From NCBI GenBank assembly GCA_964441265.1, contig CAYYKJ010000005.1, positions 29,867 through 93,866 on the forward strand: a stretch of 64,000 bases of DNA, given 5' to 3'. Position numbers and translations under genes: made by a program. Each line of letters starts with the position of its first letter. Within the stretch, counting starts at the first letter, position 1. The DNA is from an uncultured archaeon. GTDB taxonomy: Archaea > Aenigmatarchaeota > Aenigmatarchaeia > QMZP01 > QMZT01. The notes under the pieces were generated by a model. That model had not been told where the DNA came from and did no database searches. It saw nothing but the letters and a program-made list of their open reading frames with translations. Below are positions 31,386-55,411 of this stretch, one piece after another.

Positions 31386-34300
31386 TCATTTCTTTTTCCC
31401 GCGCTTCTTTTTCTTCTTCCCCTTCTTCCTGGAATGTTTCTTCAGTGATCCCCTGAGGCTGTCCAGGTATATCTCGGTCATCCTGAAGGCCCCCGTCTTC
31501 AGCTTGTCCTTGGCCAGTTTGAGCTCCAGCTTTATGTCGGTGGTGTCCACCTTCTTCTTTTCCAGAGACCTTATCTCCCTCTCCATCTCCTTGAGCTCCT
31601 TGGCGAACTTCTTGTACTTCTCGAGCTCCTCCTCCGGTATCTTGTGCGGGGAATGGAGCAGCGGGCGGAAGGCCACGAAATAAGGCCTCCCCCTGTTATA
31701 CTTGGGATTCTGAACCATTCCCACTCCGACCTCCTGTTTGGTTATCCTATTGGAGTATTCCTCCCCGTATTTCTTCTTGACCCTGTCTATGTCCCCCAGA
31801 CCCTTGGTGTGGAGCTGGAACTCGGTCAGTACGTTTCCCTTTATGGCCTCCTTGAAGTCCGCCAGGACCTGGGAAAGCATTATCATGCCTATGCCCCACT
31901 TCCTGAACTCCCTGCATCCCCTTTCCAGCGCGACGTATCCGCCGCTCCCGCCGTACTTCTCCAGCAGGCGGTGGACCTCGTCGAAGATTACCAGGAGCCT
32001 CAGTTTGGGAGATTCCTCCCAGTCCGTCTCGAATATGGTCTGGACGATGTTCTGGACCGCCTGGTCGAACTCGCCCGGCTTGAGCTTGTTGAGCATGAAA
32101 ACCGTTATCTCCGAGGGGTTCATGAATTCCTTGAACTTAATCTTCACTTTGGGATCAGTGACCTCGAATATCATCCCCTTGAAGGGCATTGCGTCGGTCT
32201 CCTTCATTCCGAACTCGTCGTATCTGTCCAGCATCTTCCTGTCCGTGCACCTCTTCACGAAACCGGTCCACTGTCCCGTGGGGTCGAACACGACCACGGG
32301 TATCTTCAGCTTCAGGCACTCCTCCACCGTTACCATGGCGGATACGGACTTCCCCGCTCCGGTTGCCCCTGCGGAGAGTATGTGGGTGGTCAGGTCGTCC
32401 GGGTCGAGCCACGCCTTGGTCCCGGTCTCCGCTATCTTCCCCATGTATATGGGACCCTTGGGAAGCTTCTTGTAGTCCACGGGGAAAAGGTACCTCCTTC
32501 TCCTCAGCTTCCATTTGCTGTACCACCTGCTCCCCTTCCATCCCACGATGAGGGCGACGGCGATTGCTATGGCCGCGATTAGCATGTATATTTTATCCAT
32601 TGTCCAGAAGGGCTCCACCACCTCGAATATGTCAGCCGAGCTGGCCGTCTTGTTCTCGTAGGAGGCGACCACCTCTATGTAGAATTTACCGGGGTATATG
32701 TTTATTTCGTCCAGGGGGAAATTCTTGACCATGGAGAGCGTCGTCTCCAGGGCCATCTCTTCTTCCTTGTATGCCAGCAGCTTGTTCGTGTTGACGTCGC
32801 GTATGTTGTGGGTCAGGTGGACGTCGAACTTCTTCTTGTACCCGAGGTTGAAGAGAGAGAGCCGGTATCGGACCGTTCCGTTCTGGCCGAGAATCTTGGT
32901 CAGCACTTCCACCTTCACATCCATGAGCGCCTCCTTCTCCGTCACTATCCTCAGCGTCACCGGGATGGTGTTAGGCGTGTCGTCCACCGTAACCAGAAGC
33001 TCCCCGTTGTATACCCCGGGCGGGGCCGACATGGGAGCGAAGAACTTGACCTTTACTGTCTTTGCTGACTGTTCGTCTATGCTGAAAGACCTGCTCTGTA
33101 GCTGGGTGAACTCCCATATCGTTCCGGTGACCTCCATATCGACATCGGAGGCGTCTTCCTGCCGGTTCTCTATGGTTATGGGATAAAGCCTGCTCTCCCC
33201 CGGAAGCAGCTCTATGTCTATCACATCCGTGTCTATGGCGTACGGCTCCTCTTCTTTTGGGCAGTCCTCCGGGCAGTTCTGGTAGTTTTCCCCGGTCTCG
33301 CACCTGTCATTGCCGCAGACAGCCCCGGCGCTGACCCCTCCGGTATATCCCCCTCCGGGTGTTTCCTCCTCGTCGCCCGGTCCGGGGGCCCAGCAGTCCT
33401 CCGGGCAGTTGTCGCTGGATTCCCCGTAGACGTTCTCGCATATTTCGTTGCCGCAGACCACCTCCTCCGCCGCCACGAAGGCGGAGAAATTATCCACGGT
33501 AGCGGTCACGGTCTCCGTGTCCACGTCGACAGAACCGCCCCTGTTGATCCAGGTGGAATTGCATCCGTTTTCGGTCCAGTCCCAGTCCCGGCACTGGTAC
33601 ACCCTTATCACGTCGATGAAGTTGTGTTCGTACCCGGTCCCGGTGAAGTTCATGGAGATATTCGCACGGGAGAAGTTCATGGTGGAGTTGACGGCGAATG
33701 CCTTGAGTATGACCCTCGTCAGGGGTATGCTTATGTATTTCAGGGCGATGTCATCGAATCCGACCGGATCGGTCATGTTCTCCGTCACGTTGATGCCGAA
33801 CATCCCCACCGCGTCCATGCTGCTGTTGATTTTCCACTCGATGTCGTAAACCCTCCTGTAGACGTCCCTGCTGTAGTTTCCTGAGGAGTTGGTGGAGAAG
33901 CTGTTGAGCAGGTAATCCGGAGACAACGACCTGTTGTCCCTGTACATGAAGAAATCTGAGAGCACCGGCTGGCCTTCCATGTCCAGAATCGTCCCGTTTA
34001 TGGTGACCATGTCAGACGGGTAGACGGCGAACCACCATGTGATGTTCCGGAGGTTGCCGTTCTTGTCCCTGGCGTAAAGGACGTAATCGTGATCGCCGAT
34101 GGAAAGTCCGGAAAGGTTTACCGCCCAGTAGGTGGAGTTGGTTTCAGGGGTCTGGTTCTGGAGCCAGCGGACACTCACGCTCCCGTTCGGGTGGGTGAGA
34201 TTCATGCTGACGTTGCTGACGTATTCCTTGTCCGTCAGGTAGGCAAGGACCTCCACTGTTCCCCCCTCCGTCACGGATTCGGATGTGACGTTGACATTGT

Positions 34301-37300
34301 ACGGAGGAGTGGTGTCCTTGTAATAGACCGCGTCAGTCTCGGTATCATTGGCCACGGTCCCGTCGAAACTGTTGGTTGTGTTTATGGTCAGGTTGTGGTA
34401 CTCGGCATCGGTGAGGTTGGGGGCGGTGCATTCCAGATACCACAGCTTGAACGGGCCTATGTAGGATGACGATTCCAGTGCGCAATCCTCTTCGTCGAGA
34501 CGTATGTCGAAATCTACGCCGTCGCTCACCGGAGAGAGCCGGTGGGTGACGTTCGCCGTTATCTGGACGCGGTCACCGGGCAGAACGTCCACCGCCTTGT
34601 CGGAACTGGTGGGCGAGGTGATGTTTATCATGGTGGGCGAAGCTACTGTTATGTGAGTGGAGTTAGTGGCGCTTCCGGGCGAGGAATCCGGGTTGGTCCA
34701 GTATGCGGTGAAGTTTATCGTGTAATTGGCCGGCTGGGTCCCGTTGGGGATCGTCACCGAATATGACCTGGTGCAGTTCTCCCCTGCCCAGACGTCGCCG
34801 CAGCCCTGGAGTCCGGGTACGATTTCCCACCCGGGAGGGAAGTATGTGTGGTTGACAGAGGAGCTGTACAGGAAGCCCTGGCCGGTGTTGGTCAGGTTAA
34901 GCGATATGTTGAAGGTGGTCGAGTAGTTTGCCGTCACGTTGTTGGTCCAGTAGTGACTTGGCATGGTCGTGAAGGCAGGAGATATGGTCTGGTTCTGCAG
35001 GTAGAATGCGTTGCTTGTGCTGGTTCCGTTGCCGTTGTAGTATTCGGAGTCCGTCGTGTTCATCTTCAGGTCATACCAGCCGGCGGGCATGCCGGTGGAA
35101 TCCCATGAGCAGTTATACCATCCGTTCCCCTCGTCATTCGCCGGTGAGCAGCTGAATTCGCTGCCGTTGCTCTCCGGGAAGAAGCTGACATCCGCCGGGG
35201 TCGCGGGATCGCTGCACTCATCCGTGGCGTTTCCCCTGAAGAGTATGCTCTGGGATTCGTAGTGATAATCACCCGCTGGCCGGGTTATGTTGTGCGTGAT
35301 CCACCCCGCCACGGTGAAGTTTCCCTGGGAGGAATTGTATTCCTTGTAGAGCGAATCCCCCAGCCCCGCTTCCCAGTACTGGTAATACACCGAGTAGGTG
35401 CAGTTTATACTGTCCAGATAATATCTGCAGTACCCCCCGGAATCCGTGGTGTTTTCGCTCTCGGTTGTATAGGAGATTCCGTCCCTGGTGGACCAGAAGG
35501 TACAGTTCCTGCCCCCTTCCAGGGGAATGCCCCTGTCGGAATCGGTAACCATCACCTCTATGAGCGCCTTCTCCCCCGCATTTCTGGACAATGTGGTGGA
35601 GGAGTTCCCGGTTATCTCTATCAGCAGGTCATCCCTCTCTATCGAGGGCCCGGTGAACTCGGAGGTGTTGCTGGCGTTGTTGTAGTCGTCCTTGTATTCG
35701 AACATGAATCCCATGGTTTCCCCTATGTCCGATGAGTTGAACGGCCTTATTGTCCAGTATGGCGTGCTTCCGGCTCCCACCAGTTTGGTCTCGTTCTTCT
35801 CCCACGTTCCGCTGTTGTTTATCCAGAGCGTCACGTTCACATCGTCACCGTTATGGTCGTAGACGAACACGGAATAGTTGTATTCCGCCCCCCAGCCGTC
35901 CGTTGAGTTGGACACATTGGCATCGCTCAGCTGGGGGGGCTCGTTGACCGTTGTGACATTTATGATTAACTCGTCCCAGCATTCTCCTGCAGGGGAGCAG
36001 GTGGAATTGGTCGCGTTCGCCTGTATGGTGCAGGGACCGGTCGTTTCCGGATACCCCAGGGGAACGGTCACGTTTATGTCGATCACTATGTGGGTCCCGC
36101 CCGTGAGGTTCGAGACATTTTTGGGTATCAGGGTTATCTTCCTCTCGTCGAGGGGGTTGGCGCAGAATCCGCTCTTGTTTGTGAACCGGATGTCGGAAAG
36201 CTCTGCGCTGCAGTCAGCGTCTATTGTGAAATTCCCTATGGTCGTGGTCCTCCCTATGAACGCGCCCCCCGCTATTTCATCCTCCCTTATCTCAAGATCA
36301 TAATTCTCCGTTACGTTCACCTCGGTTTCGTTGACTGCTGAATTCTCTGTGCCTATCATGTTCGTCCAGTTGGCCTTGAAGCCTACGTAGTAAATGCCGG
36401 AGGTGGTCCCGTTGACCACGAGAACGGTGAAATTTCTGGTGCAGTTGTTCCCTGTCTCTACCATGCCGCAATTATGACTCACCGGGGTCACGTTCCACCA
36501 CCCTGGGAAATAGCTCCTGTTTATGGTGGCGTTGTAGAGATATGCCTCTCCCGTGTTGTTGAGAACGGCGGTGAGGTTGAACGTCTGGTTGAGGTATTTT
36601 GTGACGTTGTCTGTTTCCTTATATATGGGAATGAGAAGCAGATCCGCGAAGGTCTGGGTGGCCTCCAGAACGAGGGCGTCCTTTTTGTTGTAGGTGCCGT
36701 TGTAATAGACCGGGGTCGAAGGCGGGGAGGGGAGATTGGTGGTGTTCATGGTGATGTTGTACTTTCCGGTCTCCTGATTCCATGAATCCCATGTGCAGTT
36801 GTACCAGCCGCTCCCTTCGTCATTCACCGGGGTGCACTGGCTCACGTTTATACCGTTCTCGTTTATCAGGTGGAATTCCACGTTGCCCAGACCGTCCACC
36901 GTGTTATCGCAGTCGTCGGTGGTGTTTCCCCTTATCGTTATGTTTTCCCCTTCCAGATAGTTTTCCCCGTCCGGGGTTTCTATTTTGTGTCTGAACTGGC
37001 CCACCACGTCAAGCTGGGATGTGATTTCGGCGTAATCGTAGTACTTGCTTTCAGAGACCTTCCCGTACCAGTCCTGGTGACCGACGTAATAGCTACAGTC
37101 CGGATTGAAGTACCTCCTGCAGTACCCCTCAGAGGAGGTGTTGGAAAATGAGTCCGGACTCCCTCCTCCGGTCAGGGTGACGTTTATGTAGCAGGCTATG
37201 TCGTAGATGGCGAGGGTCCCCCTGTCGGTGTCGTTTATGGAATATTCTATCAGCGTTTTCTTTGTTCCGTCCCTTGGTGCCTCGCAGTCGTCGCAGGCGG

Positions 37301-40300
37301 TCACCACCAGGGTTATGTTGTCCTTCTCCAGCTTTCCCGTTCCCTCTGACGTGTTCATCTGGTTGAAACTGTCGTTCACCCGGAACCTGTAATTATAGGT
37401 TTCGTTGTCATCTCCCGCGTATAGATCGGTCCCGTTATAATCCTTCGCCTCCATGGAGCAGGTATAGGGTGCCTGCTGCGTGGTGGAATTCTTCATGACC
37501 CAGATTCCGCTCGCGTTCGACCAGAGTTCGCATGTAACGTTGTCATTCTCCGGGTCCGTTATGCTCACGTTGTAGGTGAATGTGGAACCCCATCCCTCCT
37601 GGTAGGGATCCACCGAGAGGGAGGACCATCCGGGCTCAAGGTTGTCCAAAAAGAACCAGTCCCCCTCCGAAACGCTCCCGTTGTTGTAATAGGTCCCGGA
37701 GTAGTTCATCCTCACGTCCCAGTCCCCCTCGTCCTTTCCCGTCGAGTCCCAGGAGCAGTTGTACCATCCGTCCCCCTCGTCATCCACCGGCGTGCATTCC
37801 TCCCAACTCATCCCGTCCAGGCTCACTTCGAAGGTCGCCCCAAGACCGGAAACCATCTCCCCTTCATCATCGGTGACGTTCCCCCTCAGCGTGACAATGT
37901 CCGTAACGTTGTGGTCCTCCTCGTACTCCACCATACCGAAGAGATCACCGAACACGGTCACGTTATAAACGCTGGAGTTCTCGTCATCATAGTACTCGTC
38001 CCCCTCCGTCCCTATAATCCACTCCTGCCTCCCCACCGAATAGATCCCGGACGGATCAAAGCTGAAGTTCGCATACCCTTCCGGATCGGTCACCCCTGAG
38101 CTGTCCGGATTATACCCGGCCCCGTCAGTGGTCACCCACAGACTCACGTTAACATCACTCCCCAAGAAGGCGTCCCTGTCCGTGTCGAACACCCTCACCT
38201 TCAGGTCCGTGGAATTCGTCCCCGACCTGTTCACCTCGCTCTCGTTCCCCGCGACATACTCAATCGAGACGTTGTCCTTCTGCACGTATGGACCGCTGAA
38301 TGTAGTTGTATTGGTCAGGTTGTGCTTTTTGTCTCCGGTGGAGTTCAGGTCGTTGTATTCGAACAGGTAGTTCCTTGTCTCTTCCGTGTCGGAGAAGGAG
38401 AACGGACTTATGGTCCAGTTCACCATCGTGCCGGAACTCACGACCTTGGTTTCGTTCCTCATCCATGTCCCTCCGGGGTTCACCCAGAGCGTTATGTTGA
38501 TGTCATCGTCGTTGTTGTCGAATACCTGGACAGAATAATTGTATTCGGCTCCCCACCCGTCCACCTGCTCTGTGACCTGTGCGTTGCTCAGGACCGGAGG
38601 ATCGTTCACTATGGAAAGGTTAAGGGTGACCGTTTCCCAGCATTCGTTCGCCGGGGAACAGGCCGTTCCCGTGGCGTTGGCCCTCAAGATATACACTATC
38701 CCCTCCTCTTCTTTGTCATCTGACTGGGAGGTGGCATTTATGTTTATTTTCATGGTATTCCCTCCCGGGAGGGAGGAGACCGGATCCGGGAAGAAGTAGA
38801 CAACCGGATCGGGCGGCATGTTCAGACATGCCCCGGAGAGACATTCTATTTCCACGTCGGAGAGGTTTCCGCTGCCGAAGGCCACGAGGGTGAAATTCCC
38901 GATGGTCGTGGTTGTCCCTGAAGAGGCGTTCCCGTAGACGACCGATTCTGATATTTCAAGCTTATAGTTTGGTGTGACATTCACCATGGTCTGGTTGGCG
39001 GCGGACTTGTTCACCAGGTTCCCTTGGGTCCAGTTTCCGGTGAGGTTCACGTAATATATTCCCTCCGTGGTCCCGTTGATCACGGTTATGGTGAAATTCT
39101 CTGTGCAGTTTTCCCCGGGAAGGATGTCCCCGCAGTCGTGTATGGAAGGGGAAATGGTCCAGTTTTCGGGCATGGTGTGGTTGTTTATGGACGCGTTGTA
39201 AAGCTTTGAAAAGCCGGTGTTGTTCAGGGTGACCTGTATTTCGAATGTCCTGTTGCTGCTCCTGTTGATCCCGTCCACTATGTTCTCCTCCGGAATTATG
39301 AGCAGGTCAGCCGAAGTGTCGTTTGTCTGGAGGAAGAAGGCGTCCACCTTTTTGTATTCACCCCCGTATCTCAGGTTGTGGTCGGTGGAATTCATGGTTA
39401 TGTTGTAGTTTCCCATCTTACCACCGCTGGAATTCCACGTGCAGTTGTACCATCCGCCGCCGTCATTTGTCACGGGGGTGCACTGGGTCACGTTATCCGC
39501 CTCGTTTTCCAGATAGTAGAAAACCTTCCCGTCCAGCGTCTGGATGGTGTTGCCGCAGTCGTCGGTGGCCCTGCCCCTGATGGGAACGTTTTCTCCCTCC
39601 GTGTAGTCCTCCCCGTCGGGTATTTGTATCTGGTGGTATATCTGTCCCCAGATGTTCACGTTTTGGCTGGTGATCGTTGCGGTCTTGTAATAACTGTTTT
39701 CGGGGATCTCTCCCATGAAGTCCTGCTGCCCCAGGAAATATTCCCCATCCCCGTCCGTGCTGTTGCACCCCGGGTTAAAGTACCTCCTGCAGTACCCGGG
39801 GCTCGTGGTGTTAGAGAAGGAGTCGTAGTTCGAGAAATCTCTGGTCACGTTCAGACGGCATTCGATCTGATGCGTGATGAGACCTCCCCTGTCCAGATCG
39901 GTTATGTTGTATGAGATCAGCGTCAGAGTGTATTGATCCCTGGGGGCGTGACAATTGGAGCAGTCGGTGACCTCCAGTTCTATGTCGTCCTTCTCAAGCG
40001 TCCCGTTCTCCGTCGTTGTGTTTACTTCGTTGAAGGTGTCGTTCAGCCGGAACTTGAAAAGGTAATCACCCTGATAATCCCATTCGTAGTCATCCGCGTG
40101 GAGCGAGCATATGTACGGTGCCTGGGCGGTCATCCTCCCTTTGAGGACCCATCCCCCGCCCGCGTTGCTCCATAGCGTGCAGGTCACGGAATCGTTCTCC
40201 GGGTCGCTGACTGTGGTGTTGTATGTGAAATTGTATCCCCAACCGTCTACAGGGGGATCCACCAGCAGCGGGGATGAGTTGTAAGGCTCAAGGTTGTCCA

Positions 40301-43300
40301 AAAAGAACCAGTCCCCCTCCGAAACGCTCCCGTTGTTGTAATAGGTCCCGGAGTAGTTCATCCTCACGTCCCAGTCCCCCTCGTCCTTTCCCGTCGAGTC
40401 CCAGGAGCAGTTGTACCATCCGTCCCCCTCGTCATCCACCGGCGTGCATTCCTCCCAACTCATCCCGTCCAGGCTCACTTCGAAGGTCGCCCCAAGACCG
40501 GAAACCATCTCCCCTTCATCATCGGTGACGTTCCCCCTCAGCGTGACAATGTCCGTAACGTTGTGGTCCTCCTCGTACTCCACCATACCGAAGAGATCAC
40601 CGAACACGGTCACGTTATAAACGCTGGAGTTCTCGTCATCATAGTACTCGTCCCCCTCCGTCCCTATAATCCACTCCTGCCTCCCCACCGAATAGATCCC
40701 GGACGGATCAAAGCTGAAGTTCGCATACCCTTCCGGATCGGTCACCCCTGAGCTGTCCGGATTATACCCGGCCCCGTCAGTGGTCACCCACAGACTCACG
40801 TTAACATCACTCCCCAAGAAGGCGTCCCTGTCCGTGTCGAACACCCTCACCTTCAGGTCCGTGGAATTCGTCCCCGACCTGTTCACCTCGCTCTCGTTCC
40901 CCGCGACATACTCAATCGAGACGTTGTCCTTCCGGACATCCGCTCCCTGCGAGCCGGTATCGTCCTTCCCTCCCTCATAATCGCTCGCATTGAACTTGTA
41001 CGACCTGGACCCCACGTCATCGATGTTCCAGCCAGGATCGTGCAGAAATGACACTCTCTCATCCGTGCAGGGACAGCTGACATCCATGGAATTGACGAGT
41101 TCCCACCCGCCCCCCCTGTCATACCATAAGCTCACGTTCACCGTGTCCGGGTTGACCTCGTTCAAATCCACCGAATAGTTCCACCATTCCCCCCATCCCC
41201 CGTCCTGTTCCGTCGCTGAAGACGGGCCGCTCAGCACGGGATCGGTGGTGTTGACAGAAAACCTCCCGCCGAAGGAATCGCTCCCGTCGTTGTAATATGT
41301 CTTGCTTGTGTTGACCCTGACGTCATAAGTACCATACGTCTGGTCATGGGGGACGTCCCACGTACAATTATACCAGCCGCCCCCCTCGTCATTCACGGAG
41401 CAGCTGCCGGTTATCTCCTCCCAGCTCCCGCCGCCCGGAAGAACCTCTATCGTGTTCGAGACCCCGCTTACCATGCTGGAGTTGTCATCCGTGACGTTCC
41501 ACCTGAAAAGAACGGAATCGCTCCCGGCCCTGTAGGTCTGGCCGGATGGCTCCTGGAGGGAGGCGTTCAGTTCGCCTATGATGTTCAGGGACCCCTCTGA
41601 GCTGTTGGAATCCTTGTAATACGCTCCCCCCGATATTCCCGCCTTCCAGTTCTGGACTCCTGTGGAATAGTTGTTATCGGGCTCGAAATCCAGGGTGCAG
41701 TGTCCGGTACTGTTGGTGGTGTTTGTCCCTTCGTGTATGTAATTGGAGCCGTCCTTGGTTATCCAGAAGTGACAAGTGATATCAGGGACCGGAAAGCCCC
41801 TGTCAGTGTCGTTTACGAATGCTGTGAGGGTCATTTTCTGTGAGCCGCTCCTGTTGACCTCCCCCCCGTCACCTTCCGTCAGGGAAACCCCCGTGTCATC
41901 CTTCTCCACGGTTACCGGATAGGCAGGGGTGATGTTAGTCTCGTATTCGTCGTCTATCAGCAATCTCCAGTATTGGTTTCCCACAGCATAACGGCTCCAT
42001 GAGGATTTGACGTTCAGGTAGTTCCATCCAGAACACCCCCAGCAGGTGGTGGAGTTCATCGTACTCCATGATCCAGTCCTATTCTCCTGCACAGAGACAG
42101 TTATGTTGTCGGCCTGGTCCTGGTCGCTGACATTGATATAGAAATCCCACGTCTCTCCCCATCCCTTGTTATCGTCTCCAGACACGTCCTTGTACTGAGG
42201 CACGTAGTTTTTCAGGATGAATTCCTGAAGCGAGGAATGGCTCGTCTGTCCCAGCGAATTGTTGGCGTACCAATAATAGCTCATGTTCTGGTGGGACTGG
42301 GTGTAGTTTCCCTGACCTATCGTTATATAATACTCGTCGCTGGCGTTCTGGGCTCCCGTATAATTCATCACGTGCGTTCCGTTGTGGAATTCAAGGGCGG
42401 TCCAGTTGACACCGTAGTCGCTGGTCATGGTCACGTTTATCTGGACGTCCTGGACTATGTTTGGGGGGTCGGGGTCTATCTTATGCCCGGAGAAGCTGAC
42501 CCCCACTATCTCCAGGTCCTTCACTGTCTCCTCCGAGGTGGTGTGACCCTCCACCGTATACGTCGTGTTGACCAGTATGGGATACGTTCCCAGTTCGGAA
42601 GGCGCCTGGAAAGTGATGTTGTAGTCCCCGTCAGCGTCGGTCTCGAAAACGTAATCCTCATTCCCTGTTTCGGTGACATCAGGCTCGGCCCCGAAGAGGG
42701 ATATCCTGTAATTGTCCATAAGTGAATCCGAGGCACTTTCTCCCCAGAGAGAGGCATTATATGGGCCTCCCGGAAGCGAGACCGAATCGTTGCTTACCTT
42801 GGCCTCATCTATGTCCGTGTAAGATTCGGCATATGTATCGTTTCTTAACATGGTCATGTTATGCCAGACGAAGGTGTCTGAGTTAAAGGTTTCATTTGAT
42901 GCAATCGAAAGATAGTTGTATAACCTTATCCGGTTGTAATTGCCTGACCAGTATTGGGCGGTTGAAGCCAGGAACGTTGTATTATCCTTGTAAACACACG
43001 GACCCACTTCGTAAAAATCATAATACTTGAGTTCCGCCGTTATGTTTACGTAGTTGTAGTTTTCCGTGAAATTACTAACGACCCATTTATAATTCTGGTT
43101 GGAGCCGCCAAGACTCATATTACCCTCGCTGCAGTCCAGATTACTTGTACAGTCCTCACCTTCACCCCAGTCTGAAGCGTAATCGTCCTTTATGCACTTC
43201 CACCCGTCGCAGTCGTTGTCGCTGAAATCGTCATAGAATACGTAGCAGGTATCACCCTCGTATTTCATGCAGACTTCCCCGTAGTCCGGATCCCCTGACA

Positions 43301-46300
43301 GTGGGTTGCCGTAGTACATGGTCACGTTGAATATCGAATCTTCCGAGAGGTTGGCCTTGAACCATATCCTGGTTGAGGAGTCGTTGCACGCGGTTTGGTT
43401 GGACCACTCCAGCTCCTCGCCGTCCTGGAAGATCCTGAGGTCGGAGCAGCTGGCGTTGAGCTTCCCCTGGGAAACGAGGGTCTCGGTGTCTATGTCCGCG
43501 TAAACCGGGAACTGGTCTATCCCCTGCCCTCCGGTGTTGTTTATGCTCAGGTTCTCTCTGTATGCCCAGTTGTAGTCCCACCACCCCTCTGGATGGGAGT
43601 CACCTATCGAATATATGTCCACCATCCCGTTTATCAGGGTGCCGTTCATGTACATGTTGAAGGCGTGGTTCGCGAGGTCGGTTCCGTTGGTGAGATTTAT
43701 GTGTCCCCAGGCGGAGACGTATTCATGCTGGACCGTGGTCTCGTTTGGCTCCAGTGTTTCGGAAATTAGTATGCCGGGATAAACTAGGAGATTCGTTGAA
43801 TTTTTTCCTGATACCTCATCATCATTAACGGTCACCGTATATATTCCGTAATCTCCGGAGGAAATGTTCGGTGCCAGGAAGGATATGTTGTAGTATCCCG
43901 TTGCGTTGCTCATGTCTGATCCGTAAAACGTGTCGTTCAGGTAAAGGCTTATGTTCTCGTTTTCGATAGGCGAACCAGTTGAGGAATTGACGACCTGACC
44001 GTAAACGCTTATGTTTTTTCCCGAAAAGGTTTCATTCTCCGACAGCTCTTCTGAAATATTGATTTTCGTTTCAATGTCAGTTTCAGTGCTGTTGACCCAT
44101 GAAGACCATTCCGTCCCGTTGTATGCCCTGCAGCTGAACTTCCATGATTGCCAGCTGGTGATGTAAGAGCTGTCTACCATATCCAAAAAATTGCTCTGGT
44201 CGTTCGTCCAGAAGGAGCTGTATTCGCTGGAGTCCGTGGTCACGCTGGGATCGCTCACATTATGATTGCCCGTGTCGCCGTCCCCGATCTGGCCGTCGCC
44301 GCCATGTCCCCAGCACAAAACCCTGCCGTCGCTTTCGCGGATTCCGCATGTATGATAATAGCCGGCGGCAACGCTCGTGTATTCGCTCGAATCCGTGGTA
44401 ACGTTAGGATCTCCCGCCCCGTGGATGCTTGTGTTCCCATCGCCCAGGCGCCCGTATGTCCCGTTACCCCAGCACAAGACTCTGGAGTCATTGGCCCTTA
44501 TCCCGCATGTATGGTAGTTCCCCGCAGAAACGCCCAGGTATTCGCTGTCGTCCGTGGTCACGTTTGGATTGCCCACGCTGTGGTCGCCGACGACACCGTC
44601 CCCGAGTTGGCCGTGGTCACCGAACCCCCAGCACAAAACCCTGGAATCATTAGCACGAATACCGCAGGTATGTTGAAATCCGTTAGAGACGCTAATATAG
44701 GCGCTGTCGTCCGTTGTCAGGGTGAAATACGGTACGTTGTGCTGGTCAGTTCTTCCGTCCCCGATCTGTCCATTGTTCCCGCGTCCGCAACAGAGCACTC
44801 TGGAATCGTTGGCACGAACGCCACATGTATGCACTCCTCCCGCACTCACGCTCAGGTAAGCACTGTCATCCATGGTCAAGTTCGGGCTGCCCACGTCATG
44901 GATATCAACATTCCCGTCACCCAATCTCCCCCCGTATCCGTATCCCCAGCACAGCACCCTCGAATCGTTCGCCCTGATGCCGCATGTATGGGCATCCCCC
45001 GTCGAAATGCTGAGATATGCGCTCTCATCAGTGGTCAGGTTCGGATGTCCCACGCTGTGGGCGTTGGTGTCCCCGTCACCCAGCTGACCTTCGTTACCCA
45101 GACCCCAGCACAACACCCTGGAATCGTTGGCACGAACGCCACATGTATGCACTCCTCCCGCACTCACGCTCAGGTAAGCACTCGTATCCATGGTTACATT
45201 GGGAGAACCCGCCTCGTGGGCGTTGGTGTCCCCGTCCCCGAGTCTTCCCTGGTTGCCTAACCCCCAACACAAAACCCTGGAATCGTTCGCCCTTATGCCG
45301 CATGAATGTTCATCACCTGCGCTGATGCTCCCTTTCTTGAAGGCCGTCCCGTTCACCCACTCGACTGAATCATTATACCATTTGTATTCGAACTTCCGTA
45401 TCTCGGCGTCCTCGTCCCCGGTCGCATTGCAGTACCCTCTCAGGTTGTCGTTGGGGTTGGCCGTGTCGGGCTTTATGGTCACGTCGTTTATGGAGACGGA
45501 GAGGATATCGTATTCATCCCCGCCCTCGTCCTGGCTCTGGTTTGTGCCTTCTTCCACCGGCTGCATGGTTGTTATGTTGTTGACCGCATTCCAGGCGTCT
45601 ATCCTTGAGATGTTTGTCGTATAGGTCGAATTGACCTGATAGGGTACCGGTTTCCCGGTGGTCTTGAGCATATGCTCCACCTCTCCGGGCAGGAGGGGTT
45701 CGTTCTCCAGAAGCAGTGCCGAAACCCCCGAAACGAAGGGGACGCTCATGCTGGTCCCGCTCCTTTTCGAGTATTCCCCTCCCATGGTCCTTACCCGGAT
45801 GTCCTCCCCGGGGGCGAGGAGATCTGTCCAGTGATTCACGCTGGAGAAGGAGGCGATTTCGTCATCCTTGGTGGATGCCGCCACGCTTATCACCCCGGAG
45901 CCGCAGGCGGGAGACTTTATTTTCCGGGAGCCGTCGTTCCCGGTCGCCGCTATGACCAGAGTCCCATTGTCGACGAGCTGGTTGCAGTATTCAGCCACCG
46001 GGTTGGAGTCGCAGTAGCCGTCGTAGCTTCCGGAACCTATGGAGAGCGAGATTACATCCGCACCCTCCTGTTCGCAGTATTCCAGACCTTCAAGCACGTC
46101 GGATTCGTATCCTTTCCCGTCCCTGTCGATGACCTTGGCGACGACAAGGTCTATACCCGGTGCGACCGAATCCAGTATGCTGGCCACCTCAGTGCCGTGT
46201 CCCTGGTCGTCCCATGGGTCGTTGTCATCGTTCACGAAGTCGTGGCCTTGGGAGAAGGAATGGATATACATATAGTTGATTCCGGTGTCCAGGAAGCAGA

Positions 46301-46916
46301 CCTTCGTCCCGCTCCCGTTCAGTCCGAGACCATGCACGTCATCGGCGTTAATAAGTTCCATCGATCCGGATGTGAGCATGGAAACTGGCCTGTCGATATG
46401 GATGCTCTCTATATCCGGATTCTCCGCCAGCTCCAGGAGCCCCTCTTTCGAGACCTCCGCCGACAGGAATTTCCTGCCTTCAGCTTTCAGGTCGAAGTCC
46501 TCTTTCCGGGTATCTTTGGTTTCGAAGCTTTTCTCCCCCCTGAATTTGACTATCAGTCTGGTCTTCTCATTTTTGAGGACGGATTCCATGGCTTCTTTCC
46601 CGAGCATGGTGATGGACCTTATGCGGGATTCCACATTCATGGAGGGCAGGGTCTTTTGGATTGCTGTCGAGTTGGTTGAGTTCGGGGTGAGGTTTATGGA
46701 TTCATTGCCTGTCATATTGCCGGAAAGATTGAGAACACCGATTCCGGTCAGTTCTCCTGTTATGGAGGTGTTGTTAACGGCGATGTCGTATGCCATGACG
46801 GCTGCAGGTATGAGAAATATCATGAAAATTGCCAGTAACTGAGCCTGGCTTTTCTTCTTCTTGCCCAGACCCCCTTGAAAAACAGGCAATAAGTTTAACA
46901 GTATACTGTCCATCAA
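31386..46916 (-). CDS. giant (5176 aa) membrane-spanning multidomain surface protein: subtilase, RCC1 propeller, lectin/Ig-like repeats, TM and a cytoplasmic HerA/DUF87-like ATPase
   Basis: A single uninterrupted 15.5-kb ORF. The track start is TTG 46916 and the first ATG is 46913. TATATAAT lies 26-33 nt upstream. Domain motifs are listed under the sub-features. Confidence 0.85.
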   Translation of the reverse strand: MMDSILLNLLPVFQGGLGKKKKSQAQLLAIFMIFLIPAAVMAYDIAVNNTSITGELTGIGVLNLSGNMTGNESINLTPNSTNSTAIQKTLPSMNVESRIRSITMLGKEAMESVLKNEKTRLIVKFRGEKSFETKDTRKEDFDLKAEGRKFLSAEVSKEGLLELAENPDIESIHIDRPVSMLTSGSMELINADDVHGLGLNGSGTKVCFLDTGINYMYIHSFSQGHDFVNDDNDPWDDQGHGTEVASILDSVAPGIDLVVAKVIDRDGKGYESDVLEGLEYCEQEGADVISLSIGSGSYDGYCDSNPVAEYCNQLVDNGTLVIAATGNDGSRKIKSPACGSGVISVAASTKDDEIASFSSVNHWTDLLAPGEDIRVRTMGGEYSKRSGTSMSVPFVSGVSALLLENEPLLPGEVEHMLKTTGKPVPYQVNSTYTTNISRIDAWNAVNNITTMQPVEEGTNQSQDEGGDEYDILSVSINDVTIKPDTANPNDNLRGYCNATGDEDAEIRKFEYKWYNDSVEWVNGTAFKKGSISAGDEHSCGIRANDSRVLCWGLGNQGRLGDGDTNAHEAGSPNVTMDTSAYLSVSAGGVHTCGVRANDSRVLCWGLGNEGQLGDGDTNAHSVGHPNLTTDESAYLSISTGDAHTCGIRANDSRVLCWGYGYGGRLGDGNVDIHDVGSPNLTMDDSAYLSVSAGGVHTCGVRANDSRVLCCGRGNNGQIGDGRTDQHNVPYFTLTTDDSAYISVSNGFQHTCGIRANDSRVLCWGFGDHGQLGDGVVGDHSVGNPNVTTDDSEYLGVSAGNYHTCGIRANDSRVLCWGNGTYGRLGDGNTSIHGAGDPNVTTDSSEYTSVAAGYYHTCGIRESDGRVLCWGHGGDGQIGDGDTGNHNVSDPSVTTDSSEYSSFWTNDQSNFLDMVDSSYITSWQSWKFSCRAYNGTEWSSWVNSTETDIETKINISEELSENETFSGKNISVYGQVVNSSTGSPIENENISLYLNDTFYGSDMSNATGYYNISFLAPNISSGDYGIYTVTVNDDEVSGKNSTNLLVYPGILISETLEPNETTVQHEYVSAWGHINLTNGTDLANHAFNMYMNGTLINGMVDIYSIGDSHPEGWWDYNWAYRENLSINNTGGQGIDQFPVYADIDTETLVSQGKLNASCSDLRIFQDGEELEWSNQTACNDSSTRIWFKANLSEDSIFNVTMYYGNPLSGDPDYGEVCMKYEGDTCYVFYDDFSDNDCDGWKCIKDDYASDWGEGEDCTSNLDCSEGNMSLGGSNQNYKWVVSNFTENYNYVNITAELKYYDFYEVGPCVYKDNTTFLASTAQYWSGNYNRIRLYNYLSIASNETFNSDTFVWHNMTMLRNDTYAESYTDIDEAKVSNDSVSLPGGPYNASLWGESASDSLMDNYRISLFGAEPDVTETGNEDYVFETDADGDYNITFQAPSELGTYPILVNTTYTVEGHTTSEETVKDLEIVGVSFSGHKIDPDPPNIVQDVQINVTMTSDYGVNWTALEFHNGTHVMNYTGAQNASDEYYITIGQGNYTQSHQNMSYYWYANNSLGQTSHSSLQEFILKNYVPQYKDVSGDDNKGWGETWDFYINVSDQDQADNITVSVQENRTGSWSTMNSTTCWGCSGWNYLNVKSSWSRYAVGNQYWRLLIDDEYETNITPAYPVTVEKDDTGVSLTEGDGGEVNRSGSQKMTLTAFVNDTDRGFPVPDITCHFWITKDGSNYIHEGTNTTNSTGHCTLDFEPDNNYSTGVQNWKAGISGGAYYKDSNSSEGSLNIIGELNASLQEPSGQTYRAGSDSVLFRWNVTDDNSSMVSGVSNTIEVLPGGGSWEEITGSCSVNDEGGGWYNCTWDVPHDQTYGTYDVRVNTSKTYYNDGSDSFGGRFSVNTTDPVLSGPSSATEQDGGWGEWWNYSVDLNEVNPDTVNVSLWYDRGGGWELVNSMDVSCPCTDERVSFLHDPGWNIDDVGSRSYKFNASDYEGGKDDTGSQGADVRKDNVSIEYVAGNESEVNRSGTNSTDLKVRVFDTDRDAFLGSDVNVSLWVTTDGAGYNPDSSGVTDPEGYANFSFDPSGIYSVGRQEWIIGTEGDEYYDDENSSVYNVTVFGDLFGMVEYEEDHNVTDIVTLRGNVTDDEGEMVSGLGATFEVSLDGMSWEECTPVDDEGDGWYNCSWDSTGKDEGDWDVRMNYSGTYYNNGSVSEGDWFFLDNLEPYNSSPLLVDPPVDGWGYNFTYNTTVSDPENDSVTCTLWSNAGGGWVLKGRMTAQAPYICSLHADDYEWDYQGDYLFKFRLNDTFNEVNTTTENGTLEKDDIELEVTDCSNCHAPRDQYTLTLISYNITDLDRGGLITHQIECRLNVTRDFSNYDSFSNTTSPGYCRRYFNPGCNSTDGDGEYFLGQQDFMGEIPENSYYKTATITSQNVNIWGQIYHQIQIPDGEDYTEGENVPIRGRATDDCGNTIQTLDGKVFYYLENEADNVTQCTPVTNDGGGWYNCTWNSSGGKMGNYNITMNSTDHNLRYGGEYKKVDAFFLQTNDTSADLLIIPEENIVDGINRSSNRTFEIQVTLNNTGFSKLYNASINNHTMPENWTISPSIHDCGDILPGENCTENFTITVINGTTEGIYYVNLTGNWTQGNLVNKSAANQTMVNVTPNYKLEISESVVYGNASSGTTTTIGNFTLVAFGSGNLSDVEIECLSGACLNMPPDPVVYFFPDPVSSLPGGNTMKININATSQSDDKEEEGIVYILRANATGTACSPANECWETVTLNLSIVNDPPVLSNAQVTEQVDGWGAEYNYSVQVFDNNDDDINITLWVNPGGTWMRNETKVVSSGTMVNWTISPFSFSDTEETRNYLFEYNDLNSTGDKKHNLTNTTTFSGPYVQKDNVSIEYVAGNESEVNRSGTNSTDLKVRVFDTDRDAFLGSDVNVSLWVTTDGAGYNPDSSGVTDPEGYANFSFDPSGIYSVGRQEWIIGTEGDEYYDDENSSVYNVTVFGDLFGMVEYEEDHNVTDIVTLRGNVTDDEGEMVSGLGATFEVSLDGMSWEECTPVDDEGDGWYNCSWDSTGKDEGDWDVRMNYSGTYYNNGSVSEGDWFFLDNLEPGWSSLSVDPYQEGWGSTFTYNVSITDPENDNVTCELWSNASGIWVMKNSTTQQAPYTCSMEAKDYNGTDLYAGDDNETYNYRFRVNDSFNQMNTSEGTGKLEKDNITLVVTACDDCEAPRDGTKKTLIEYSINDTDRGTLAIYDIACYINVTLTGGGSPDSFSNTSSEGYCRRYFNPDCSYYVGHQDWYGKVSESKYYDYAEITSQLDVVGQFRHKIETPDGENYLEGENITIRGNTTDDCDNTVDGLGNVEFHLINENGINVSQCTPVNDEGSGWYNCTWDSWNQETGKYNITMNTTNLPSPPSTPVYYNGTYNKKDALVLEATQTFADLLLIPIYKETDNVTKYLNQTFNLTAVLNNTGEAYLYNATINRSYFPGWWNVTPVSHNCGMVETGNNCTRNFTVLVVNGTTSGIYYVGFKANWTNMIGTENSAVNETEVNVTENYDLEIREDEIAGGAFIGRTTTIGNFTIDADCSAELSDIRFTNKSGFCANPLDERKITLIPKNVSNLTGGTHIVIDINVTVPLGYPETTGPCTIQANATNSTCSPAGECWDELIINVTTVNEPPQLSDANVSNSTDGWGAEYNYSVFVYDHNGDDVNVTLWINNSGTWEKNETKLVGAGSTPYWTIRPFNSSDIGETMGFMFEYKDDYNNASNTSEFTGPSIERDDLLIEITGNSSTTLSRNAGEKALIEVMVTDSDRGIPLEGGRNCTFWSTRDGISYTTESENTTDSGGYCRYYLDSINCTYSVYYQYWEAGLGDSLYKEYNSSQGNFTVAGWITHNITRPAGDYHYESQSILFRGNATDECSDPATPADVSFFPESNGSEFSCSPANDEGNGWYNCSWDSTGMPAGWYDLKMNTTDSEYYNGNGTSTSNAFYLQNQTISPAFTTMPSHYWTNNVTANYSTTFNISLNLTNTGQGFLYSSSVNHTYFPPGWEIVPGLQGCGDVWAGENCTRSYSVTIPNGTQPANYTINFTAYWTNPDSSPGSATNSTHITVASPTMINITSPTSSDKAVDVLPGDRVQITANVTHRLSPVSDGVDFDIRLDEEDCALESSSYIGPFKLWYLECTAPNLTDAEYHNLTINTTNSFDGTVANDTETDAVYYKDTTPPYNVNVTSESVTEGGTVEVLAYLTDKEYVSNVSMNLTHPNGSVSVRWLQNQTPETNSTYWAVNLSGLSIGDHDYVLYARDKNGNLRNITWWFAVYPSDMVTINGTILDMEGQPVLSDFFMYRDNRSLSPDYLLNSFSTNSSGNYSRDVYRRVYDIEWKINSSMDAVGMFGINVTENMTDPVGFDDIALKYISIPLTRVILKAFAVNSTMNFSRANISMNFTGTGYEHNFIDVIRVYQCRDWDWTENGCNSTWINRGGSVDVDTETVTATVDNFSAFVAAEEVVCGNEICENVYGESSDNCPEDCWAPGPGDEEETPGGGYTGGVSAGAVCGNDRCETGENYQNCPEDCPKEEEPYAIDTDVIDIELLPGESRLYPITIENRQEDASDVDMEVTGTIWEFTQLQSRSFSIDEQSAKTVKVKFFAPMSAPPGVYNGELLVTVDDTPNTIPVTLRIVTEKEALMDVKVEVLTKILGQNGTVRYRLSLFNLGYKKKFDVHLTHNIRDVNTNKLLAYKEEEMALETTLSMVKNFPLDEINIYPGKFYIEVVASYENKTASSADIFEVVEPFWTMDKIYMLIAAIAIAVALIVGWKGSRWYSKWKLRRRRYLFPVDYKKLPKGPIYMGKIAETGTKAWLDPDDLTTHILSAGATGAGKSVSAMVTVEECLKLKIPVVVFDPTGQWTGFVKRCTDRKMLDRYDEFGMKETDAMPFKGMIFEVTDPKVKIKFKEFMNPSEITVFMLNKLKPGEFDQAVQNIVQTIFETDWEESPKLRLLVIFDEVHRLLEKYGGSGGYVALERGCREFRKWGIGMIMLSQVLADFKEAIKGNVLTEFQLHTKGLGDIDRVKKKYGEEYSNRITKQEVGVGMVQNPKYNRGRPYFVAFRPLLHSPHKIPEEELEKYKKFAKELKEMEREIRSLEKKKVDTTDIKLELKLAKDKLKTGAFRMTEIYLDSLRGSLKKHSRKKGKKKKKRGKKK
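31700..32480 (-). other. cytoplasmic P-loop ATPase domain (HerA/DUF87-like) of the giant protein
   Basis: It has the Walker A motif GATGAGKS (32346-32369), the Walker B motif LLVIFDEVHRLL (around 31975-31990) and RKWGIGMIMLSQ. It lies C-terminal to the TM helix. Confidence 0.75.
32538..32590 (-). other. single transmembrane helix separating the extracellular and cytoplasmic parts of the giant protein
   Basis: YMLIAAIAIAVALIVGW is followed by KGSRWYSKWKLRRRR, which follows the positive-inside rule. Confidence 0.65.
37633..38280 (-). repeat. copy A of a 648-bp apparently identical intragenic duplication
   Basis: It matches 40285..40932 at an offset of exactly 2652 nt. Antisense ORF translations from the track are identical, and both boundaries were checked base by base. 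Confidence 0.85.
40285..40932 (-). repeat. copy B of a 648-bp apparently identical intragenic duplication
   Basis: See copy A. It encodes KDNVSIEYVAGNESEVNRSG...GDWFFLDNLEP (216 aa), which appears twice in the protein. Confidence 0.85.
43260..43570 (-). other. DUF2341/concanavalin-like lectin module of the giant protein
   Basis: It contains YRENLSINNTGGQGIDQFPVYADIDTETLVSQGKLNASCSDLRIFQDGEELEWS...IWFKANL...MYYGNP. Confidence 0.5.
44210..45330 (-). other. seven RCC1-like propeller repeats of the giant protein
   Basis: There are seven ~51-aa repeats of H(T/S)CG(I/V)RANDSRVLCWG.G..G(Q/R)(L/I)GDG. Confidence 0.8.
45590..46400 (-). other. subtilisin-like (S8) serine protease domain of the giant protein
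   Basis: The catalytic triad motifs are in subtilase order and spacing: D210 in CFLDTG (46287-46289), H240 in GHGTEVAS (46197-46199) and S389 in SGTSMSVP (45750-45752). Confidence 0.85.
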
Positions 46917-47029: not shown

Positions 47030-47413
47030 ATGTCGGAAAGAATTAAGCGTGGTTTTATGAAGGTCAGAGACGACCTCCTGAAGGTCAAGGATTTCATAAG
47101 GAAGCCCGCCAAGGCAAGGCCCTATCCCGAGGACGTTGATCAGGTCGTCCTCCAGCTCAAATCGCTCGACGAGAAGATAGACGAGATAAAGGAATTTCTC
47201 ATGAGCAAGAAGGAGAGCCCCGTCAAGCTCAAGAGGAAGAAGCAGATAATCTACGTTCTGAAGGAGAAGGGAAAACTTACTGCAACGGGGCTCAGCAGGA
47301 CCCTCAAGATATCCAGGAATCGAAGCAACGAGTATCTCAGGGAGCTGGAGAAGCAGGGCATAGTAGAGGGCCTCTCCGTCGGCAAGAAGAAATTCTACAG
47401 GATGAAAGAATGA
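47030..47413 (+). CDS. coiled-coil plus winged-HTH protein
   Basis: It has the C-terminal wHTH LTATGLSRTLKISRNRSNEYLRELEKQGIV. Its stop overlaps the minD-like start in an ATGA overlap. Confidence 0.55.
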   Translation: MSERIKRGFMKVRDDLLKVKDFIRKPAKARPYPEDVDQVVLQLKSLDEKIDEIKEFLMSKKESPVKLKRKKQIIYVLKEKGKLTATGLSRTLKISRNRSNEYLRELEKQGIVEGLSVGKKKFYRMKE

Positions 47414-48156
47414 GAAGGATAATAGCGGTGGCCTCCGGGAAGGGAGGAGTCGGAAAGACCGTGACATCCCTGAACCTCGCCATGGCCCTTCATGAAGCCG
47501 GGGAGGATGTCGTTGTCGTCGACGCCGACCTGAACAACCCATCTGTCGGCCTCCATCTCGACCTTTTCCACGCCCCGACCACAATAAACGACGTTCTGGA
47601 AAGGGACATCCACATATCCGAGGCATTGCAGATACACCCCTCCGGCCTGAGGGTCGTACCATCCTCGGTTTCCATAGAGAACCTCCACCCGAACACGGTG
47701 AGGTTCCGGGAGATATTCCATGACCTCGACAGTTACATAATTCTTGACTGCGCCCCGGGATTCGGCAGGGAGGTCCTGTCGGCTCTGGATGTCAGCGATG
47801 AGATAATGGTGGTCACCAATCCCAATTTTCCCGCCGTCGTTGGGGCCATGCGGCTGATGGAGGTGGCCAAGGACATGGACAAGAAGATAATCGGAATTGT
47901 TCTCAACAGGATAGGAATGAGCGACGTGGATGAAGAGGAAATAGAGGGAATCTGCCAGGAGAGCATAATAACCGAGATACCCTTCGACAGGAACGTCGAC
48001 AGGAGTGTCAGGAACAAGGTTCCCCTGATAAGGCACGCACCCCTCTCCCCGGCCTCGGTGAAATTCCGCTTTCTGGCGGGGAGGGTTTCCGGCAACGAGT
48101 ACGTCCCCCCGAGGTTCCTCCCGCTGAGGAGGCTGGCCGGGAAGATCAGAAGATAA
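47410..48156 (+). CDS. minD: MinD/ParA-family P-loop ATPase
   Basis: It has the deviant Walker A motif SGKGGVGKTV and the Walker B motif YIILDCAPG. Confidence 0.85.
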   Translation: MRRIIAVASGKGGVGKTVTSLNLAMALHEAGEDVVVVDADLNNPSVGLHLDLFHAPTTINDVLERDIHISEALQIHPSGLRVVPSSVSIENLHPNTVRFREIFHDLDSYIILDCAPGFGREVLSALDVSDEIMVVTNPNFPAVVGAMRLMEVAKDMDKKIIGIVLNRIGMSDVDEEEIEGICQESIITEIPFDRNVDRSVRNKVPLIRHAPLSPASVKFRFLAGRVSGNEYVPPRFLPLRRLAGKIRR

Positions 48157-55393: not shown

Positions 55394-55411
55394 ATTTCTT
55401 CTTTCTATATT

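Follow-up and report, generated by a model that had tools for sequence, protein, structure and literature searches.

How can one archaeal protein carry a protease and a glycosylated stalk outside the cell and a motor-like ATPase within it, and what might such a protein do? The question is raised by a 64,000-nucleotide (nt) stretch of DNA, hereafter the window, from an uncultured member of the Aenigmatarchaeota (GenBank assembly GCA_964441265.1, contig CAYYKJ010000005.1, positions 29,867 to 93,866), in which a single open reading frame (ORF) occupies positions 31386–46916 of the minus strand. On the strength of sequence comparison the encoded giant protein is very probably a member of the SPEARE family of giant membrane-anchored extracellular proteins. 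Coordinates given below are window positions, and every segment of the giant gene is read from the minus strand.

The ORF comprises 5,176 codons counted from a TTG, its coordinates include the stop, and the frame is open across 15.5 kilobases (kb) with no internal stop. The probable start is the ATG at 46913 (codon 2), from which a protein of 5,175 amino acids (aa) is produced; a called gene product of that length, read from the same ATG and identical in sequence, is public (P0241). Hydropathy reveals only two hydrophobic segments, aa 24–48 and aa 4773–4796. The first lies within a predicted Sec-type signal peptide (aa 1–42; 46791–46916), in which KKKK precedes the hydrophobic core and a putative cleavage site separates VMA from YD. 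The second is a single transmembrane (TM) helix (32529–32600), also present in an AlphaFold2 (AF2) model and followed by the basic stretch WKLRRRR on the cytoplasmic side. The ectodomain between them (aa 43–4772, ∼4,700 aa) contains 263 N-x-S/T sequons, against 75 ± 8 in 500 composition-matched shuffles, the highest of which reached 99; it also holds 96 cysteines and is acidic, with a net charge of approximately −443. By contrast, the C-terminal 380 aa that follow the helix have no sequon, three cysteines and a net charge of +29. Because the hydrophobic segments number just two and sequons, cysteines and charge all change across the TM helix, the product is predicted to be a type I membrane protein, glycosylated on the outside and with its C-terminus in the cytoplasm. 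A sequence-only reading of the same DNA had described a single uninterrupted ORF of 5,176 aa encoding an N-terminal signal or anchor, a sequon-rich exterior and one TM helix ahead of a cytoplasmic ATPase of the HerA/FtsK superfamily, and this outline stands in all its parts.

The cytoplasmic portion consists of a P-loop ATPase (aa 4797–5090; 31647–32528) and a helical coiled-coil region ending in a poly-lysine tail (aa 5095–5176; 31389–31634). An AF2 model of aa 4740–5176, with a predicted local distance difference test score (pLDDT) of 87.8, displays the TM helix, a RecA-like core ∼40 residues further on and three C-terminal helices at positions 356–436 of the model (aa 5095–5175). The Pfam profile DUF87 matches above its cut-off (E 3.9e-10; 40.7 bits against 23.2) and covers positions 1–101 of 220. 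When the model is compared with the PDB by Foldseek, SsoHerA (4d2i) is ranked first (E 8.5e-13), followed by defence-system HerAs, the STIV B204 packaging ATPase and TcpA; when a family profile is run against PDB sequences, SsoHerA again leads (E 1.1e-9), ahead of DotL (0.01) and FtsK (0.05). The Walker A motif is GATGAGKS (G4850–K4856), the Walker B motif is VIFDEVH at 4976 (D4979/E4980), and a REFRKWG motif holds R5002 and R5005. The latter residue aligns with R381 of SsoHerA, presumably the arginine finger of that enzyme. Among 140 representatives of the family the G/G/G/K residues of Walker A are 100% conserved, while the D/E pair of Walker B, H4982, R4983, R5002, R5005, K5006 and Q5016 are each conserved in at least 99%. 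As DUF87 scores above its cut-off, HerA comes first by both profile and fold, and the motifs are conserved, the ATPase is placed by sequence and model in the HerA clade of the FtsK-HerA superfamily. It is predicted to be catalytically competent and is probably ring-forming. The earlier assignment of this region to a HerA/DUF87-type P-loop NTPase thus passes a profile test, and the coiled coil with its poly-lysine tail, proposed at the same time, is matched by the modelled helices.

Placement in the clade does not make the ATPase an orthologue of HerA, VirB4, FtsK or CedB/CedD, because the features that mark membership of each are wanting. With HerA it shares the Walker motifs and an arginine-finger motif (AREGRKFG in HerA, REFRKWG in the giant); however, it has no HAS-barrel, as the AF2 model leaves only the ∼40 residues between TM helix and first core strand, it is membrane-anchored, and identity is ∼15%. 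Nor is there a NurA/Mre11/Rad50 operon: the neighbours of the giant are coiled-coil, zinc-ribbon and ParA-like genes. FtsK/SpoIIIE proteins possess a gamma domain and a multi-pass membrane domain where the giant has a single TM helix, and the FtsK_SpoIIIE profile attains 19.5 bits against a cut-off of 24, over the P-loop region alone. CedB and CedD are closer in plan, each with a TM segment at the N-terminus ahead of a HerA-clade ATPase in the cytoplasm, and they act where archaeal cells touch (PMC11868833); some relatives of the giant even have two tandem paralogues, reminiscent of the CedB and CedD pair. The best NCBIfam match of the ATPase is indeed CedD (E 5e-9), at 35 bits against a cut-off of 600 and over the Walker A region only. 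Unlike the Ced ATPases, the giant lacks a VirB4-like N-terminal domain and has no neighbouring gene for a CedA-like channel, and the Ced proteins in turn have no giant ectodomain.

The fusion of such an ectodomain to such an ATPase is not new, having been published for the SPEARE family. Hamm et al. 2019 (PMC6642349) described SPEARE proteins as lying mostly outside the cytoplasm, with a TM segment close to the C-terminus; their cytoplasmic region is conserved and was read as a type III restriction enzyme. Reva et al. 2023 (PMC10266531) re-annotated this region as a VirB4/TraG-like ATPase with a coiled coil behind it, in proteins ordered as Sec signal, immunoglobulin (Ig)-like domain, beta-propellers, ∼75 Ig-like domains, TM segment, ATPase and coiled coil; the giants in question, SVXNc_0300 and BNXNv_0298, were argued to have no serine protease. 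The sequence-only reading had held an ectodomain joined through one TM helix to a HerA/FtsK-like ATPase to be undescribed, a claim that has to be withdrawn since both papers report the same layout. Its further suggestion of an energy-coupled attachment, penetration or transfer device agrees with published proposals, although the arrangement on which it was based is not unprecedented.

The window protein and the SPEARE or nanohaloarchaeal giants have in common a signal, an ectodomain of thousands of residues with a propeller and Ig-like or adhesion domains, a single TM helix close to the C-terminus, a conserved P-loop ATPase on the cytoplasmic side with a coiled coil after it, and a DPANN organism as bearer. 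The protease denoted by the 'SP' of the name is likewise present, as a Peptidase_S8 domain with an intact triad. Direct comparison leads to the same family: AQV86_02330 of the nanohaloarchaeon SG9 (P0080), listed as a SPEARE protein in PMC6642349, is 51% identical to the C-terminal module of the giant (E 1e-137), and the ATPases of N. occultus and N. haloferacivicina are 50–51% identical to it. The differences are of degree and of domain choice. The window giant comes from an Aenigmatarchaeota-like phylum and is moderately, not strongly, acidic and non-halophile-like. It has a bona fide S8 protease, unlike the giants as described in PMC10266531, and an RCC1-type propeller in place of PQQ/WD40-like ones; no second ATPase paralogue lies in tandem within the 64-kb window, in contrast to some SPEARE loci.

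The distribution of the module was followed by homology search. A word-index search with the C-terminal 437 aa returned 387 homologues, 48–67% identical, in Aenigmatarchaeota, Woesearchaeota, Nanohaloarchaeota and other groups. This search listed only proteins of at most 763 aa, as if the fusion were unusual, an idea rejected as an artefact of fragmentary contigs and ranking in view of the ORFs at individual loci and of an exhaustive search. GTDB species genomes, when scanned, contained 484 relatives, 80 loci of which were fetched with 10-kb flanks, a span that leaves the N-terminal heads of many loci out of reach. In most of the 80 the module stands at the C-terminal end of an ORF longer than 1,100 aa, and in more than 12 the ORF extends beyond the flank and so exceeds 3,750 aa. 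Counting the window, 41 loci are complete at the 5' end, with lengths clustering around 630–730, 1,400, 2,200, 2,950 and 3,100 aa and one of 3,591 aa; most of the 18 longer complete ORFs inspected start with a signal-like hydrophobic segment. The exhaustive HMMER search, of 1.84 billion representatives of clusters at 50% identity, yielded 967 matching representatives at E ≤ 1e-3 and 362 at E ≤ 1e-30. Of the 150 that score best, 109 reach 1,000 aa or more, 65 reach 2,000, 21 reach 4,000 and 10 reach 5,000, with a maximum of 7,878; the ATPase lies mostly at or close to the C-terminal end, and in 86 of them the domain is no more than 20 aa from the C-terminus. The TM-plus-DUF87 module, which the earlier reading had proposed to seek on other ectodomains, is widespread on them.

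The closest locus (L004) belongs to an Aenigmatarchaeota metagenome-assembled genome, is 82% identical in the module and is collinear from the stalk onward; its syntenic downstream genes encode a coiled-coil protein (52% identity), a zinc-ribbon protein (50%) and an HD-domain protein (69%). Members are also present in Ca. Hydrothermarchaeum profundi (L009, on a 1.9-Mb contig), and some of those among L009, L018, L020, L054, L064 and L071 exceed 3,750 aa. The family is not confined to DPANN, unless the bins labelled Hydrothermarchaeota and Methanosarcinales are contaminated.

Conservation falls away from the membrane. The ATPase and the coiled-coil C-terminus are found in 83/83 related loci and 139/139 other representatives, and the two beta-sandwiches that precede the TM helix in 76/83 and 125/139. 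For the adjoining ectodomain (aa 4100–4480) the figures are 54/83 and 36/139, for a cysteine-rich module 20/83 and 35/139, and for the stalk modules 33–45/83 and 12–21/139. At the distal end, and for the loci within the reach of the 10-kb flanks, the S8 domain occurs in 0/83 loci and 1/139 representatives (P0347, 44% identity), while RCC1 and DUF2341 occur in none of either set. A head built of S8 and RCC1 domains therefore appears unusual within the family; ten complete relatives mostly have PQQ/FG-GAP-like propellers or Ig domains there. Elsewhere the head parts are encoded apart. A separate protein of 1,237 aa, comprising a signal and RCC1 repeats (P0121), is 64% identical to the matching part of the giant. 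In another assembly (GCA_043823195.1, 10001–23966; L084) a 1,321-aa S8 protein (P0122), 44% identical to the N-terminus of the giant, ends 14 nt upstream of a 6,422-aa giant ORF with a Laminin_G_3 domain. Conversely, the base can occur alone: a short paralogue of 699 aa (P0044) runs from signal through cysteine module, two beta-sandwiches and TM helix to ATPase and coiled coil, with the cysteine module placed directly after the signal peptide. Because of this gradient, the separate head proteins and the short paralogues that bear only the base, the heads are seen as interchangeable and the base as the probable invariant core of the family.

In some genomes the short form accompanies the giant. 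In SG9 (L002/L003, 1–14138) a short ATPase paralogue overlaps the end of an 8,553-aa giant gene by 4 nt, and both there and in a second locus (L052) the order is giant ORF, short TM-ATPase paralogue (625–731 aa) overlapping or abutting it, and a coiled-coil partner. In L052 the giant ORF has an ATPase of its own besides the tandem paralogue.

The base itself consists of three elements outside the membrane. The conserved membrane-proximal ectodomain (aa 4100–4480; 33477–34619) has no Pfam match. It is followed by two cysteine-rich modules of the form CGNxxCE...CPEDC (aa 4487–4552; 33261–33458), located at aa 4488–4508 and aa 4534–4552 and already recognized as such in the earlier reading, and then by the two tandem beta-sandwiches (aa ∼4559–4766; 32619–33242), which are nearly devoid of sequons. 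An AF2 model of aa 4470–4800 (pLDDT 88) contains these two sandwiches and no pore-like domain. Their fold resembles WxLIP (DUF916/DUF3324) of Enterococcus, in which tandem beta-sandwiches likewise precede a C-terminal TM anchor: the top Foldseek match is 9i1y (E 5.5e-12), a family profile reaches the same PDB entry at E 0.002, and the Pfam WxLIP_PGBD match is weak (0.018). With TM-scores of ∼0.3 and 11% identity, however, the likeness is that of a generic tandem Ig-like arrangement, and homology is not established.

The head of the window protein opens with a Peptidase_S8 (subtilisin) domain at aa 201–421 (45654–46316; Pfam E 2.8e-35), which aligns with Ak.1 protease (E 2.5e-33) and retains the triad D210, H240 and S389. 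A seven-blade RCC1 beta-propeller follows at aa ∼530–905 (44202–45329), with seven stretches matched by Pfam RCC1/RCC1_2, a WD40_RLD match at E 3.9e-52 and a tandem period of 159 nt or 53 aa. Next are a CarboxypepD_reg-like beta-sandwich (aa 970–1031; 43824–44009; E 1.6e-5), which at 25.6 bits remains below the Pfam cut-off of 32.3, and DUF2341 (aa 1157–1239; 43200–43448), which exceeds its cut-off (E 4.2e-7). The intact subtilisin and the complete seven-blade propeller had been named in the sequence-only reading, and both are upheld. Its I9-like propeptide, by contrast, has no Pfam profile or PDB sequence match and is possible solely as a fold. Of its DUF2341/LamG-like region the first half holds. 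SPEARE proteins bear adhesion domains that include at least one laminin-G domain; the giant has many Ig-like domains and DUF2341, and a LamG domain, with no profile or PDB sequence match and with no Laminin_G match in Pfam over aa 1290–1500 even at E ≤ 5, is likewise possible solely as a fold. S8 proteins of related genomes do bear DUF2341 together with Laminin_G_3. The carboxypeptidase-regulatory-like and CARDB-like sandwiches proposed alongside fare unevenly: the former falls short of its cut-off as stated, and the latter is represented by matches to NPCBM_assoc, which is presumably CARDB-like, by Pfam clan.

One gene accompanies the giant consistently. A 493-aa cytoplasmic coiled-coil protein is encoded at 29850–31331 on the minus strand, beginning 54 nt downstream of the giant ORF, and a coiled-coil gene of ∼490 aa occupies the same place in 68/84 loci, at a median gap of 29.5 nt and on the same strand in 67/68. 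These loci include nanohaloarchaeal, woesearchaeal, undinarchaeal, altiarchaeal and hydrothermarchaeal ones. All of the 67 partner homologues compared (67/67) score E < 1e-10, against a best value of 0.05 for controls comprising reversed sequence and unrelated coiled coils. The partner has no PDB sequence match, and in NCBIfam only sub-threshold matches to Rad50/SMC coiled-coil arms, noise far below cut-off; it is not mentioned in PMC6642349 or PMC10266531. It is the only neighbour family common to most loci, the others, unannotated, occurring in no more than 15.

Other genes adjoin the pair. Two zinc-ribbon proteins (27220–29276, minus strand) lie downstream of the partner, the one of 422 aa also with an NPCBM_assoc beta-sandwich; they are syntenic with the closest relative (34% and 50% identity), and the first occurs in six loci. 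Divergent from the giant gene, on the plus strand, are a ParA/MinD-type ATPase (47410–48156) and a 796-aa coiled-coil protein (48194–50584) with sub-threshold SMC/Rad50/arcadin-like matches only; ParA-like genes are near the giant locus in only six related loci, so that the linkage is weak.

The favoured account of what the giant does is that of a ring translocase, put forward tentatively and by analogy. The ATPase would form a ring, probably a hexamer, under the membrane, with several stalks bundled into one fibre. The head, judging from the identity of its domains, may bind and proteolytically open the envelope of a neighbouring or host cell, and hydrolysis of ATP in the ring would move a polymer across the membrane of the symbiont at the contact site. 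As for the partner protein and the coiled coil at the C-terminus, their role may be that of a cytoplasmic scaffold, adaptor or regulator. FtsK and TraB are membrane-anchored proteins that move DNA, and by analogy with these and with CedB/CedD the likeliest substrate would be DNA. CedB and CedD, both TM-anchored HerA-clade ATPases, are required for DNA import between aggregated Sulfolobales cells (PMC11868833). Judged together as one reading, family identity and ring-translocase mechanism deserve moderate confidence.

Several observations weigh against this account. The main difficulty is that an obvious channel is missing: each subunit has one TM helix, the six helices of a hexamer are unlikely to form a polymer-conducting channel alone, and in the related loci no conserved polytopic membrane partner (CedA- or VirB6-like) is present in the 7 kb downstream or the 6 kb upstream. 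The distal heads vary widely among members, and the substrate or target is therefore not conserved. Members reside in lineages not known to be host-dependent, namely the Hydrothermarchaeum noted above and bins labelled Methanosarcinales; a role in host attack may therefore not be general, which counsels caution towards a purely parasitic reading. Finally, the copy number of the stalk super-repeats is uncertain owing to an exact repeat of 648 nt.

A bolder form of the translocase account, which must be called unlikely, would make the family an undescribed archaeal cell-to-cell transfer machine distinct from both Ced and type IV secretion systems (T4SSs): a HerA-clade ring covalently fused to six giant stalks, glycosylated and self-assembling into a conduit with interchangeable heads (in the window protein a working subtilisin and an RCC1 propeller), would pump host DNA or other polymers into the symbiont, with the near-universal coiled-coil partner gene as part of the system. 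If true, the imported polymers would feed the AMP-phosphorylase/form III RuBisCO salvage genes 13 kb away.

A different view, rather unlikely, dispenses with transport altogether: the giant would be an adhesin and protease whose cytoplasmic module serves anchoring, assembly or signalling, and which tethers, clusters, tensions or remodels the fibre or reports contact. This view fits a protein with one TM helix and no conserved channel partner; the coiled coil conserved at the C-terminus, together with the conserved coiled-coil partner, points to a scaffold, and the membrane-proximal domains, nearly free of sequons, are as expected of a packed oligomeric base. ATPases of the VirB4 type, moreover, function in assembly too. 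On the other side, the near-invariant catalytic and arginine-finger residues of the 140 representatives argue for ATP turnover in a ring, and to our knowledge the characterized membrane-anchored members of the FtsK-HerA superfamily are translocases.

The proposal of a T4SS-like 'straw', in which the ATPase would be the VirB4/TraG equivalent and effectors would be exported through or along the giant into the host, was published for nanohaloarchaeal homologues (PMC10266531) and is improbable for the window protein. VirB4, the VirD4-like coupling protein TcpA and DotL share its superfamily and occur among its fold or sequence matches; VirB4/VirD4 proteins (TraG, TrwB, DotL) in general are of this superfamily, and the VirD4 type also combines an N-terminal TM segment with a cytoplasmic ring. 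There are weak Pfam matches to AAA_10, TrwB_AAD_bind and T4SS-DNA_transf, and some genomes have the tandem second ATPase paralogue. Yet every T4SS-type match in Pfam or NCBIfam is below cut-off and limited to the P-loop region (AAA_10, 16.8 against 27.5 bits; TraC, 19 against 567), and the N-terminal domain CagE_TrbE_VirB is not reported by Pfam at E ≤ 5. VirB4 stands 47th by fold and is absent from the PDB profile list, both of which HerA heads. No VirB6-, VirB3-, VirB8- or pilin-like gene is conserved beside the locus, and the window is devoid of a second ATPase paralogue.

A far less probable explanation is that the gene is an assembly artefact, with a chimeric ORF or a repeat collapsed or expanded, and that ectodomain and ATPase are separate genes. 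It turns on the glycosylated stalk (aa ∼1600–4100; 34617–42119), ∼2,500 aa of Ig-like beta-sandwich repeats with matches to Pfam MG2, Big_7 and NPCBM_assoc and with 162 sequons, modules of which have homologues in 33–45 related loci. Where three super-repeats of ∼884 aa had been proposed, two are full copies (aa 2001–2884 and aa 2885–3768) and the third is truncated (aa 3769–∼4091); they are composed of sub-modules that recur at offsets of ∼320 aa, beginning near aa 1600. Over their first 216 aa the two full copies do not differ even in DNA, this segment being an exact 648-nt direct repeat (37633–38280 and 40285–40932) at an offset of 2,652 nt or 884 aa, while outside it the copies have merely 46–55% protein identity. 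The exact repeat represents either a very recent gene conversion or an assembly hazard. Besides this repeat, an artefact is suggested by the contig of the closest relative, which breaks inside the gene ∼60 aa beyond the equivalent of the repeated segment, and by the separate genes found elsewhere (giant and short ATPase in SG9; S8 protein and giant in L084). Nevertheless, the frame is open throughout, the closest relative is collinear over stalk, TM helix and ATPase, and the same fusion is seen in dozens of independent assemblies and in 109/150 representatives, a recurrence by which an artefact at the junction of ectodomain and ATPase is, as far as sequence can tell, refuted. The repeat could change the length of the stalk only; the junction, ∼5 kb away, is unaffected. 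Mosaic exchange of stalk modules with another protein (P0316) had been suspected from very low summed E-values and was rejected, chunk identities being only ∼30–37%.

To read the cytoplasmic domain as a type III restriction endonuclease degrading imported DNA, as hypothesized in PMC6642349, is barely credible: the weak Pfam ResIII match (E 6.4e-5; 23.4 bits, from Walker A through a DExH-like Walker B), from which the interpretation of Hamm et al. also stems, denotes a helicase-type P-loop domain and not a nuclease, as PMC10266531 likewise noted, DUF87/HerA scores much better, and the HerA-like core and helices account for the whole cytoplasmic part, with no nuclease family matched in Pfam or NCBIfam scans. 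The 'RE' of SPEARE is thus a mis-annotation of the family and not a ground for excluding the giant from it.

The remainder of the window is in keeping with a DPANN chromosome, with aminoacyl-tRNA synthetase genes, CDC48, RFC, form III RuBisCO and AMP phosphorylase. The last two lie on the plus strand in a segment (57274–63492) that comprises three HAD-family hydrolases, form III RuBisCO (59691–60962) and an AMP-phosphorylase-like protein (61951–63492). Form III RuBisCO and AMP phosphorylase make up an archaeal route of nucleotide salvage that is common in DPANN; these genes may be relevant if the giant imports nucleic acid, and there is no direct link. A diversity-generating retroelement cassette precedes them (54512–57264, plus strand). 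It consists of a 293-aa target ORF with no Pfam match (54512–55393), an Rfam RT-16 RNA (55465–55643), a bAvd ORF (55685–56386) and a reverse transcriptase ORF (56188–57264); its template repeat (55644–55695) and variable repeat (55161–55212) differ at 4/52 positions, all of them template adenines. Targeting of the giant gene by this element was considered and discarded, the template repeat having no copy inside the gene.

Giant proteins of this kind are the leading candidates for the means by which DPANN archaea hold on to their hosts and draw material from them. The unambiguous S8 protease of the window protein bears on the published dispute as to whether such giants have one. The family to which it very probably belongs is large, reaches beyond DPANN (362 clusters at 50% identity and E ≤ 1e-30) and shows a HerA-like, catalytically conserved motor together with a conserved coiled-coil partner. 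Testable handles on a known unsolved system would be offered by the probable ring of the ATPase, by its coiled-coil partner and by the head with its protease.

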